Virus record (IMG/VR): IMGVR_UViG_3300030430_003815
Length of the DNA: 20,000 nt
Source: an uncultured virus (IMG/VR IMGVR_UViG_3300030430_003815)
Lineage: Duplodnaviria; Heunggongvirae; Uroviricota; Caudoviricetes
Reading direction: 5' to 3' (one strand)
Both the position numbers and the translations under genes were made by a program. The notes below the pieces were generated by a model, which did not search any database, had not been told where the DNA came from, and worked only from the letters and a program-made list of their open reading frames with translations. Below, piece after piece: positions 10,626 to 11,246 of the stretch. Each line of letters opens with the position of its first letter. Within the stretch, counting starts at the first letter, position 1.

Positions 10626-10654
10626 TTTACATTGTTTAAAAAATATGGTATAAT
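10626..10654 (+). promoter_or_regulatory. strong sigma70-type/T4 early-like promoter driving the ncRNA island
   Basis: (G)TTTACA 10626-10631, 17-nt spacer, extended TGG-TATAAT 10649-10654, A-tract upstream. Overlapping AATAAATA (10652-10659) is one mismatch from the T4 late promoter. Confidence 0.8.
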
Positions 10655-10664
10655 AAATATATTA

Positions 10665-11030
10665 TTCGGACGGTGAAGCTGAGTTAAAGTAGACTGGACT
10701 CGGGGGCGGTACCCGACGGCTCCACCAAGAATACTGGCCCATAAGTAGCCTTCGTAGCGTCATCCGGATGCCACCATTAAGTAGGTGGTTAGCAGTCAGA
10801 CGATAAAGACAGTAAGATGTCTTAGGGTTTTAGAACGTGGCTTGGTTCTCCAGTATTCTTGATGGGGCCGAAATAGGATCGACAGATATGGAGATAACGT
10901 GGAGTTCGACGGTTAATCGCGTCAAAGATTAAACAAACTAAACGCAAACGATGATTTTGCACCTGTGGATTACGCCCTAGCGGCCTAATCGCACCGAGCC
11001 AGGAGGAGCTTGGGAACAGAATCCTCCACG
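10665..11030 (+). ncRNA. ssrA: circularly permuted (two-piece) tmRNA, alphaproteobacterial type; tag ANDDFAPVDYALAA
   Basis: Acceptor piece comes first: T-stem TCGGG/CCCGA with loop GGCGGTA, then CGGCTCC-ACCA ending at 10727. Coding piece starts GGGGCCGAAATAGGATCGAC at 10864, giving a 7-bp acceptor stem with G3.U70. Tag frame 10944-10988. GGAGGA..GGGAACAGAA..TCCTCC element at the 3' end. Outer ends approximate. Confidence 0.95.
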
Positions 11031-11053
11031 GAATTTGGTCGACGGACTGAATA

Positions 11054-11237
11054 GTGTAGTGCAAGGAAACGCGTCTTACCAAGAGGCGTAACTTGATTGC
11101 TCAGGCGTGGTAGCCAGGTTTAAGGCCTAGCGGCTAAGAATCACATCACCATACCAGGTGGGAGTAAGTTCTGGGAGTTATGAGAGATGGTATCTTGAGC
11201 GACCCAGTTGGAGGTATACCCATAGTCCTCCCTACAC
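11054..11237 (+). ncRNA. structured ncRNA of about 185 nt, resembling the manA RNA motif
   Basis: Closing helix GTGTAG/CTACAC; CAAG/CTTG enclosing ACGCGTCTT/AAGAGGCGT; CACC/GGTG hairpin whose loop ATACCA (11151-11156) is complementary to TGGTAT (11188-11193); CTGGG/CCCAG; GGAGG/CCTCC. The family name is from recall only. Confidence 0.6.
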
Positions 11238-11246
11238 ACATTACAA

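Follow-up and report, generated by a model that had tools for sequence, protein, structure and literature searches.

We analyzed a 20,000-nucleotide (nt) stretch of DNA from an uncultured virus of the Caudoviricetes (IMG/VR record IMGVR_UViG_3300030430_003815; hereafter, the window), in which positions 10666–10988 form a circularly permuted two-piece transfer-messenger RNA (tmRNA) gene recognized by the Rfam models alpha_tmRNA (RF01849, 115.4 bits) and tmRNA_permuted (RF04321, 102.2 bits). The gene shows the arrangement typical of permuted tmRNAs, namely a T-arm piece ending in CCA, an intervening segment, and a piece that starts at G1 and carries the tag frame; both Rfam models treat the intervening segment as an insertion in a model loop. 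According to the Rfam alignments, the acceptor piece (T-arm and 3′ acceptor strand) covers 10666–10727 of the + strand, with CCA at 10725–10727, and the coding piece covers 10864–11030 of the same strand, with G1 at 10864. The tag reading frame within the coding piece (10944–10988, + strand) reads ANDDFAPVDYALAA followed by a stop, and ARAGORN gives the same tag in the related locus L363. Between CCA and G1 lies an intervening segment of 136 nt (10728–10863, + strand), with coordinates and letters as reported in a preliminary description of this DNA. Comparative sequence analysis identifies this segment as one copy of a new and strongly supported family of conserved RNAs, and hence as more than a spacer.

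A conserved, covarying fold in the intervening segment

A search of viral contigs with the sequence conserved at the start of the tmRNA coding piece listed at least 120 loci, among which two other intervening segments resembled that of the window. Patterns for the core then gave 28 viral and 25 metagenome loci, 72 further viral loci, and 11 loci with a long third helix (P3). The covariance model of the family, R1, scored 53 of 72 loci at 60.9 bits or more, and its final run over 78 sources returned 78 matches of at least 60.9 bits, comprising 51 distinct sequences. R1 finds a single copy in the window (10725–10860, 98.1 bits), where the runner-up match reaches 10 bits.

The fold is supported by the way in which its pairs vary. 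Across the 51 distinct sequences, 97.4% of pair cells form a standard pair, compared with 75.1% in shuffles and 31–38% when the partners are slid by 1–3 columns; 23 of the 27 pairs change on both sides, compared with 17.7 in shuffles, and the covariation score, 0.649 against 0.214, was reached by none of 500 shuffles. An unfitted alignment of 15 diverse members (MAFFT followed by RNAalifold) recovered helices P1–P5, with compensatory changes in 22 of the 24 predicted pairs. The preliminary description had proposed a covariation check on aligned segments and had allowed that relatives might show neither conservation nor covariation; the fold is both conserved and covarying, with compensatory changes in every helix among the 51 sequences and, by RNAalifold, among the 15. 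Conservation extends to single strands, 19 of the 47 unpaired core columns being at least 95% conserved. The seven nearest tmRNA genes, whose flanks are 85–100% identical, all retain the core and differ in the tops of P3, their segments being 100, 136, 139 or 154 nt long. The G-U pairs read on the strand shown, and the orientation of the motif matches that of the flanking tmRNA, tRNA or downstream open reading frame (ORF) wherever examined; strand and shared orientation with the neighbours together point to function as RNA. The 138-nt stretch folds at −43.9 kcal/mol, compared with −31.56 ± 4.04 kcal/mol for 200 shuffles (z = −3.05), none of which equalled it.

The family fold spans 100–154 nt and comprises five helices (P1–P5) and a pseudoknot; the window's copy holds all family elements, including a GCCUU..UAG box, a GUAAGA loop and a GGC in the P5 loop (coordinates below are on the + strand). 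P1 is the perfect 12-base-pair (bp) closing helix of the preliminary description, in which CAAGAATACTGG (10726–10737) pairs with CCAGTATTCTTG (10850–10861). Its 5′ strand takes in the CA of CCA and so overlaps the CCA end, as had been claimed, and its 3′ strand is separated from G1 by A10862 and T10863 (10862–10863). All five modelled P1 pairs change on both sides, and compensated changes farther out occur in L089 and L554. P2 joins CCC (10738–10740) to GGG (10825–10827), with all three pairs changing on both sides (CCC/GGG, CTC/GAG, TCC/GGA and CCG/CGG among members). The pseudoknot, an interaction absent from the helix list of the preliminary description, pairs AGCC (10747–10750) with GGCT of the P5 loop (10839–10842), and its outer pair covaries, being C-G in 38, A-U in 7 and G-C in 6 of the 51 distinct sequences. 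The conserved single strand TTCGTAG (10751–10757; family consensus TTcnTAG) leads to P3 (10758–10802), whose base pairs CGTC (10758–10761) with GACG (10799–10802) and changes on both sides at all four pairs. P4 is a hairpin of AGACA (10807–10811) and TGTCT (10818–10822), with four of five pairs changing on both sides and a GTAAGA loop (10812–10817) that is at least 95% conserved, and P5 is a hairpin of AGAAC (10832–10836) and GTTCT (10845–10849), with all six modelled pairs changing on both sides and a loop, GTGGCTTG, that carries the 3′ strand of the pseudoknot.

Comparison across relatives upholds P2, the P3 base and P5 among the inner helices that had been listed, and also a helix that had been offered as an alternative, which in the form AGACA/TGTCT is P4. 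By contrast, TAAG/CTTA, a competitor of P4, is not retained elsewhere in the family, as judged from alignments read by eye. The apical part of P3, whose length varies among members, holds the palindrome noticed earlier, CATCCGGATG, located at 10761–10770, and the helix CCACC (10771–10775)/GGTGG (10784–10788), which within the window's subfamily is either kept or swapped for another hairpin. CCGG-centred palindromes (CATCCGGATG, GCCCGGGC and TCCGGA) occur in apical P3 of the long-P3 variants (the window at 10761–10770, L178, L192 and L548) and, on their sequence, could permit loop–loop pairing of two molecules; three or four sequence types are known. In L442, L454 and L416 an additional hairpin separates P2 from the pseudoknot strand at the junction, so that the model mis-assigns P1 and P2, and this probably explains the unpaired cells at those pairs.

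Other readings of the segment were set aside. The longest coding frame on the + strand has about 12 codons and no ribosome-binding site and lies in a part of P3 that is missing in relatives (by eye), and a minus-strand ORF of 86 amino acids (aa; 10822–11082) was rejected as overlapping the tmRNA. A likeness of part of P3 to the sarcin-ricin loop sequence was dropped, as it was seen in one subfamily only and conflicted with the pairing.

Genomic contexts of the module and of the tmRNA slot

Nineteen of the 51 distinct members lie, as in the window, in the intervening segment of a permuted tmRNA, and in three of these a ribosome-binding site and an ORF of 38 aa, of membrane type, come between the module and G1. 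Eighteen stand just after a stop codon, 8–15 nt 5′ of the ribosome-binding site of an acidic ORF of an 81-aa type, for which no Pfam or PHROG match was found; two of the 18 also have tRNA-Trp within ~30 nt. Four more members lie within ~30 nt of a tRNA and have no 81-aa-type ORF downstream, bringing those so close to a tRNA to six, with tRNA-Trp and tRNA-Leu among the neighbours. Three are found 5′ of hsp20, immediately after a TATAAATA box, one is found 5′ of a PD-(D/E)XK nuclease gene, and the settings of the remaining six differ from these, with one member flanked by a stop codon and a terminator-like hairpin. At L435 the module takes up all 100 nt that separate a one-piece tmRNA (RF00023, 65 bits) from tRNA-Lys. 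The region upstream of hsp20 in L430 recurs in phage Mosig with the module cleanly absent, and only a hairpin stands at this site in Mosig. Each of the four contigs that were searched whole has one module copy.

One copy is also present in G004, a 56-kb phage record that CheckV scores as 100% complete and that encodes a family-A DNA polymerase, a gp2.5-like single-stranded DNA-binding protein and a terminase; searched with the tRNA and both tmRNA models, this record gave zero matches. Because the same fold exists outside tmRNA genes, including in the G004 record with its lack of tRNA or tmRNA matches, the module is independent of tmRNA and no component of it, and its carriers extend beyond T4-like phages. 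At the G004 locus (L557, G004 26000–44000), the 5′ flank of the module, AGAATACTCG, is common to tmRNA-borne copies (AGAATACTGG or AGAATACTTG), a similarity of sequence that suggests the module may have passed between phages of unrelated types. All copies found come from uncultured marine viral or metagenome contigs. In isolate phages, BLAST searches with the window locus, L430, L447, L435 and L448 gave no match across the motif, and R1 found none in Melnitz, Mosig and HTVC008M (0/3), a weak blank, since the first-look filter raised no candidates. One pattern scan of prokaryote genomes, which covers pattern-fitting sequences only, gave no credible locus among 58 (best, 20.4 bits with R1).

We surveyed the slot in the tmRNA loci listed above, of which 109 had both the acceptor end and G1 located; all counts in this survey are among the matches listed. 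The 101 distinct phage intervening segments are 8–499 nt long, with a median of 86. The view in the preliminary description that such segments are normally short and poorly conserved agrees with the ~45-nt unstructured loop in the Rfam alpha_tmRNA consensus but not with this range in phage genes. Among the 70 distinct segments of at least 50 nt, 67 are closed by at least 8 bp, in stems that begin at or just after CCA and end 2–4 nt before G1. Because these long segments are closed whatever they contain, the closing helix is a general property of the slot and not particular to this RNA, and the earlier suggestion that the helix gates tmRNA maturation loses its specificity. Such a stem would hold CCA next to G1 and would let the tRNA-like domain fold whatever is inserted.

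What is inserted differs widely. Clustering the 70 long segments gives 55 groups without relation to one another, of which 46 have a single member, and 19 of the 46 segments of at least 95 nt hold a ribosome-binding site and an ORF of at least 15 codons. A small membrane-type ORF (38–44 aa in L069, L096, L418 and L432; ...W[ST]ICAD...) recurs in the intervening segments of L069, L085, L096, L038, L104/L418 and L432. In L069, L085 and L096 the ORF is terminated by the TGA within the conserved TGAT, one base ahead of G1, and in L104 a TAG abuts G1; with the stop in this position, an RNase P cut would yield an mRNA ending at its stop codon. The 499-nt segment of L030 contains a ~120-aa ORF ending in ...GGEHE, and in L474 (826–1185) a similar ...GGEHE-type ORF, recognized by eye, lies 3′ of the tmRNA and a manA RNA motif, with the module directly after it. 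Other non-coding segments form small families of their own (L063/L088, L042/L060, L108/L109, L011/L115 and the L021 group), which may be further structured-RNA cargos.

In the window itself, a putative sigma-70-like promoter (TTTACA-17-TATAAT, with TG preceding the −10 box; 10626–10654, + strand; 11 of 12 consensus matches) lies upstream of the tmRNA gene and, if active, would begin the tmRNA precursor several bases ahead of 10666; the TGGTATAAT box is also found upstream of relatives' loci. Directly 3′ of the tmRNA is a manA RNA motif (11033–11241, + strand; RF01745, 68.6 bits), a neighbour that is not part of the family described here; the window shares the order of tmRNA and then manA with 6 of the 17 relatives' loci that were scanned (L474, L418, L420, L461, L450 and L395), an adjacency that makes the tmRNA locus a hub of structured RNAs. 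ARAGORN called zero genes in the window, despite the two strong Rfam tmRNA matches, and does call the tmRNA in the relatives L372 and L363, whose segments are 121 or 128 nt; long intervening segments may thus conceal phage tmRNAs from standard annotation. Neighbouring genes are phage-like, with ThyX, a cell-wall hydrolase, DUF3310, an FkbM-type methyltransferase and UDP-glucose dehydrogenase, and among isolates the OM43 phage Melnitz and its kin, which belong to Kyanoviridae, are the closest in DNA sequence.

Proposed role of the module and competing explanations

We propose that the module is an autonomous RNA that acts after release from the tmRNA slot, a reading that we judge to be evenly poised between right and wrong. 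One precursor would be transcribed from the promoter-like site at 10626–10654, and the tRNA-like domain would fold around the slot, with the closing helix joining CCA and G1. RNase P would then cut 5′ of G1, two bases past P1, and ordinary 3′-end maturation would trim the acceptor piece to CCA, cutting at the foot of P1. The module would in this way be released as a ~135-nt RNA with its ends clamped in the 12-bp helix, and such clamped ends should resist exonucleases. We infer that the freed RNA would most likely bind a protein or ligand as a stable RNA, acting apart from the tmRNA. P1 stops 2 nt short of G1 in the window, and the same distance separates it from the +1 position of tRNA-Lys in L435. 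The preliminary description had suggested that tmRNA processing releases a separate cargo RNA; comparison, through the fold outside tmRNA genes, bears out the independent module in this idea, and the RNA data are compatible both with a free RNA and with its absence.

Those RNA data came from two sources. A look-up of sequencing runs covered 24 runs, none of which contained half of the sampled words. Four metatranscriptome runs, all of them assembled contigs, were compared with the window, and most matches were to the conserved T-arm of other tmRNAs with short spacers; apparent joints skipping 129–135 nt are explained by these short-spacer tmRNAs. Near-identical pieces span from CCA into the segment (10641–10740) and from the segment into the coding piece (10837–10904), and one 190-nt contig starts exactly at G1; the middle of the segment is uncovered.

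Several points weigh against the proposal of a released, autonomous RNA. Assembled contigs are unable to show the RNA ends of a free ~135-nt species. The 18 ORF-leader copies and the G004 copy have no tRNA-like neighbour to supply RNase P and CCA processing, so that if the module needs excision, another nuclease or self-cleavage would be required there; these copies weaken the part of the proposal that concerns tRNA-type excision and keep a ribozyme, a cis-regulator and a stabilizing element in contention. If the module acts in cis, its release from the tmRNA would be incidental, and any action in trans is purely conjectural. The patterns by which members were gathered derived from the window and its relatives, so that the shares of the contexts are biased and divergent members were missed, and the 51-sequence alignment was fitted to the model's helices, of which the pseudoknot and the RNAalifold run are independent. 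A z of only −1.64, obtained on folding within the whole 325-nt tmRNA, and the generic closing stem of nearly all long segments would suit a chance structure or a plain spacer whose helices are meaningless beyond that stem; such a reading is barely credible given 78 matches at or above 60.9 bits (51 distinct sequences), compensation in each of the helices and a motif that also occurs outside tmRNA genes.

The module could instead be a new class of small self-cleaving ribozyme, a portable cassette that would cleave the transcript at or within itself and so help to separate tmRNA halves, tRNAs and cistrons without host nucleases. Its context-independent placement (in the tmRNA slot, in tRNA arrays, between ORFs and after a stop codon), its presence in a phage record where RNase P could not be recruited by a tRNA-like neighbour, its compact core of several helices and a pseudoknot, in which 19 unpaired positions are highly conserved, and the presence/absence differences between related loci would all fit. 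Known small ribozymes behave alike, and hepatitis delta virus (HDV)-like theta ribozymes adjoin viral tRNAs, according to the accessible parts of the source (10.1101/2023.06.13.544163, PMC10879173). Even so, we regard self-cleavage as possible but unlikely: no Rfam ribozyme family matches the segment (E up to 10) or the eight free-standing loci that were scanned (E up to 1), and other phage tmRNA slots hold ORFs or plain hairpins, so that host enzymes evidently suffice for maturation. The strand order seems unlike that of the HDV-like, twister, hammerhead, pistol and hatchet ribozymes, in a comparison that covered the Rfam models, and a 2′,3′-cyclic phosphate left at CCA would hinder charging of the tmRNA. 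We attach a similarly low likelihood to the broader idea that the module is a new catalytic or self-assembling RNA class that ocean phages pass from genome to genome as a plug-in, either a self-cleaving ribozyme setting the ends of RNAs next to tmRNA, tRNAs and mRNAs or an RNA pairing with itself through the CCGG palindromes to form a larger particle.

A passive structural element, which would insulate or stabilize neighbouring RNA by blocking exonucleases or preventing misfolding, seems decidedly unlikely to us, as does its variant of a tolerated selfish insertion. The P1 clamp of 5–13 bp is always present, whatever the flanks; the L430 copy stands directly after the TATAAATA box, which we take to be a T4-type late promoter, and would therefore form the 5′ end of the hsp20 transcript; and the clean presence/absence differences, with a single copy in each of the four records searched, would also be expected. 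A plain hairpin would suffice to stabilize, however, and Mosig has just a hairpin at that site, whereas the conserved unpaired nucleotides, the GUAAGA loop and the pseudoknot imply a specific, selected three-dimensional fold. Miniature inverted-repeat elements have terminal repeats conserved between copies; here the P1 sequence varies by site while its pairing and the core are kept, the opposite of terminal inverted repeats. The remaining explanation, a cis-acting regulatory aptamer (a riboswitch or protein-binding leader) for the downstream gene, with the tmRNA copy displaced or co-opted, draws on the 18 members placed 8–15 nt before the ribosome-binding site and ATG of the conserved 81-aa acidic ORF, on other copies that precede hsp20, the nuclease gene or the small membrane ORF, on junction nucleotides and a pseudoknot that are aptamer-like, and on the riboswitch-like manA and glnA RNAs that adjoin phage tmRNAs (glnA: PMC9004378, in its accessible parts). 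It would nonetheless surprise us if this proved correct, since the downstream partners (tRNAs, the tmRNA coding piece, the 81-aa ORF, hsp20, the nuclease and a terminator-like hairpin) share no common function, and the constant 5′-leader position before functionally related genes that is characteristic of riboswitches is not found. No expression platform was recognized by inspection of the sequences, the ribosome-binding site lying outside P1 with no alternative pairing apparent, and the 81-aa ORF offers no functional clue through Pfam or PHROG.

Significance and comparison with known systems

The family adds a well-supported orphan RNA class, with the profile from which ribozymes and riboswitches have emerged before, and its carriers, phages abundant in the ocean, comprise T4-like relatives of SAR11 and OM43 phages as well as a PolA-type phage of 56 kb. 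The finding that a genuinely independent RNA is among the cargos of the phage tmRNA slot supports the view of the segment as an expression and processing platform and not as waste. The locus also exposes an annotation gap, the tmRNA being missed by ARAGORN and the insert having no Rfam model, and a 140-nt transcript makes the idea directly testable.

The Rfam scan suggested in the preliminary description, run with Rfam 15 on 10700–10890 at E up to 10, matched just the two tmRNA models and nothing to the segment itself, and the same database at E up to 1 gave nothing over the motif in eight free-standing loci. Within the accessible parts of the literature searched on two-piece tmRNA, intervening segments, pelagiphage tmRNA and phage structured RNAs, this RNA is not described. 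A catalogue of 8,495 candidate structured RNAs from IMG/VR uncultured viral contigs (PMC10690425) mentions tmRNA only in its reference list as far as its accessible text goes; its readable supplements contain neither 'tmRNA' nor 'ssrA', and its file 4 lacks six member contig numbers. The module may be an unnamed DNAVirus_X entry of that catalogue.

Several known RNAs resemble the module in placement and differ from it in kind. HDV-like theta ribozymes beside viral tRNAs have been proposed to act in tRNA processing (PMC10879173, accessible parts); they have no sequence or model similarity to the module, for which cleavage is hypothetical. The manA motif (RF01745) and the glnA RNA of Melnitz are likewise structured RNAs attached to phage tmRNA loci, but they have other folds, neither model matches the segment, and they sit after the tmRNA and not in the excised slot. 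The article on such phages describes, in its accessible parts, two-piece tmRNAs and a glnA RNA in the 3′ domain of the Melnitz ssrA gene (PMC9004378), and the word 'intervening' occurs in it zero times. The closest analogue in placement is the pair of stable RNAs of phage T4, species 1 and 2 (rnaC and rnaD; 139 and 119 nt), which the record annotation puts directly after tRNA-Arg in the tRNA cluster, beside tRNA-type genes and presumably co-transcribed with them. To our knowledge, no function has been assigned to either. R1 run on the 5-kb tRNA region of T4 with filters off gave a best score of 9.1 bits and nothing over rnaC or rnaD, indicating that they are not homologous; both T4 RNAs bear tRNA-like ends by eye (a T-arm-like stretch in rnaC, a terminal CCA in rnaD), whereas the module is without any.

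The nearest relatives in position are the intervening segments of permuted tmRNAs themselves (RF04321, RF01849), which occupy the same slot as in the window, after the CCA that ends the acceptor piece and before the G1 that opens the coding piece, and are likewise missing from mature tmRNA. In a study that lists 79 phage sequences, one such segment contains an intact tRNA-Ala gene and another a repetitive element, and cargo of this kind is termed a 'unique feature' (PMC11915505, accessible parts). Compared with that account, the slot in the at least 120 phage loci surveyed here is routinely long and stem-closed, and compared with known intervening segments, that of the window holds a conserved non-tRNA fold which also exists away from tmRNA genes. 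What is new is therefore the RNA family, and the slot that carries it is of an already known kind.

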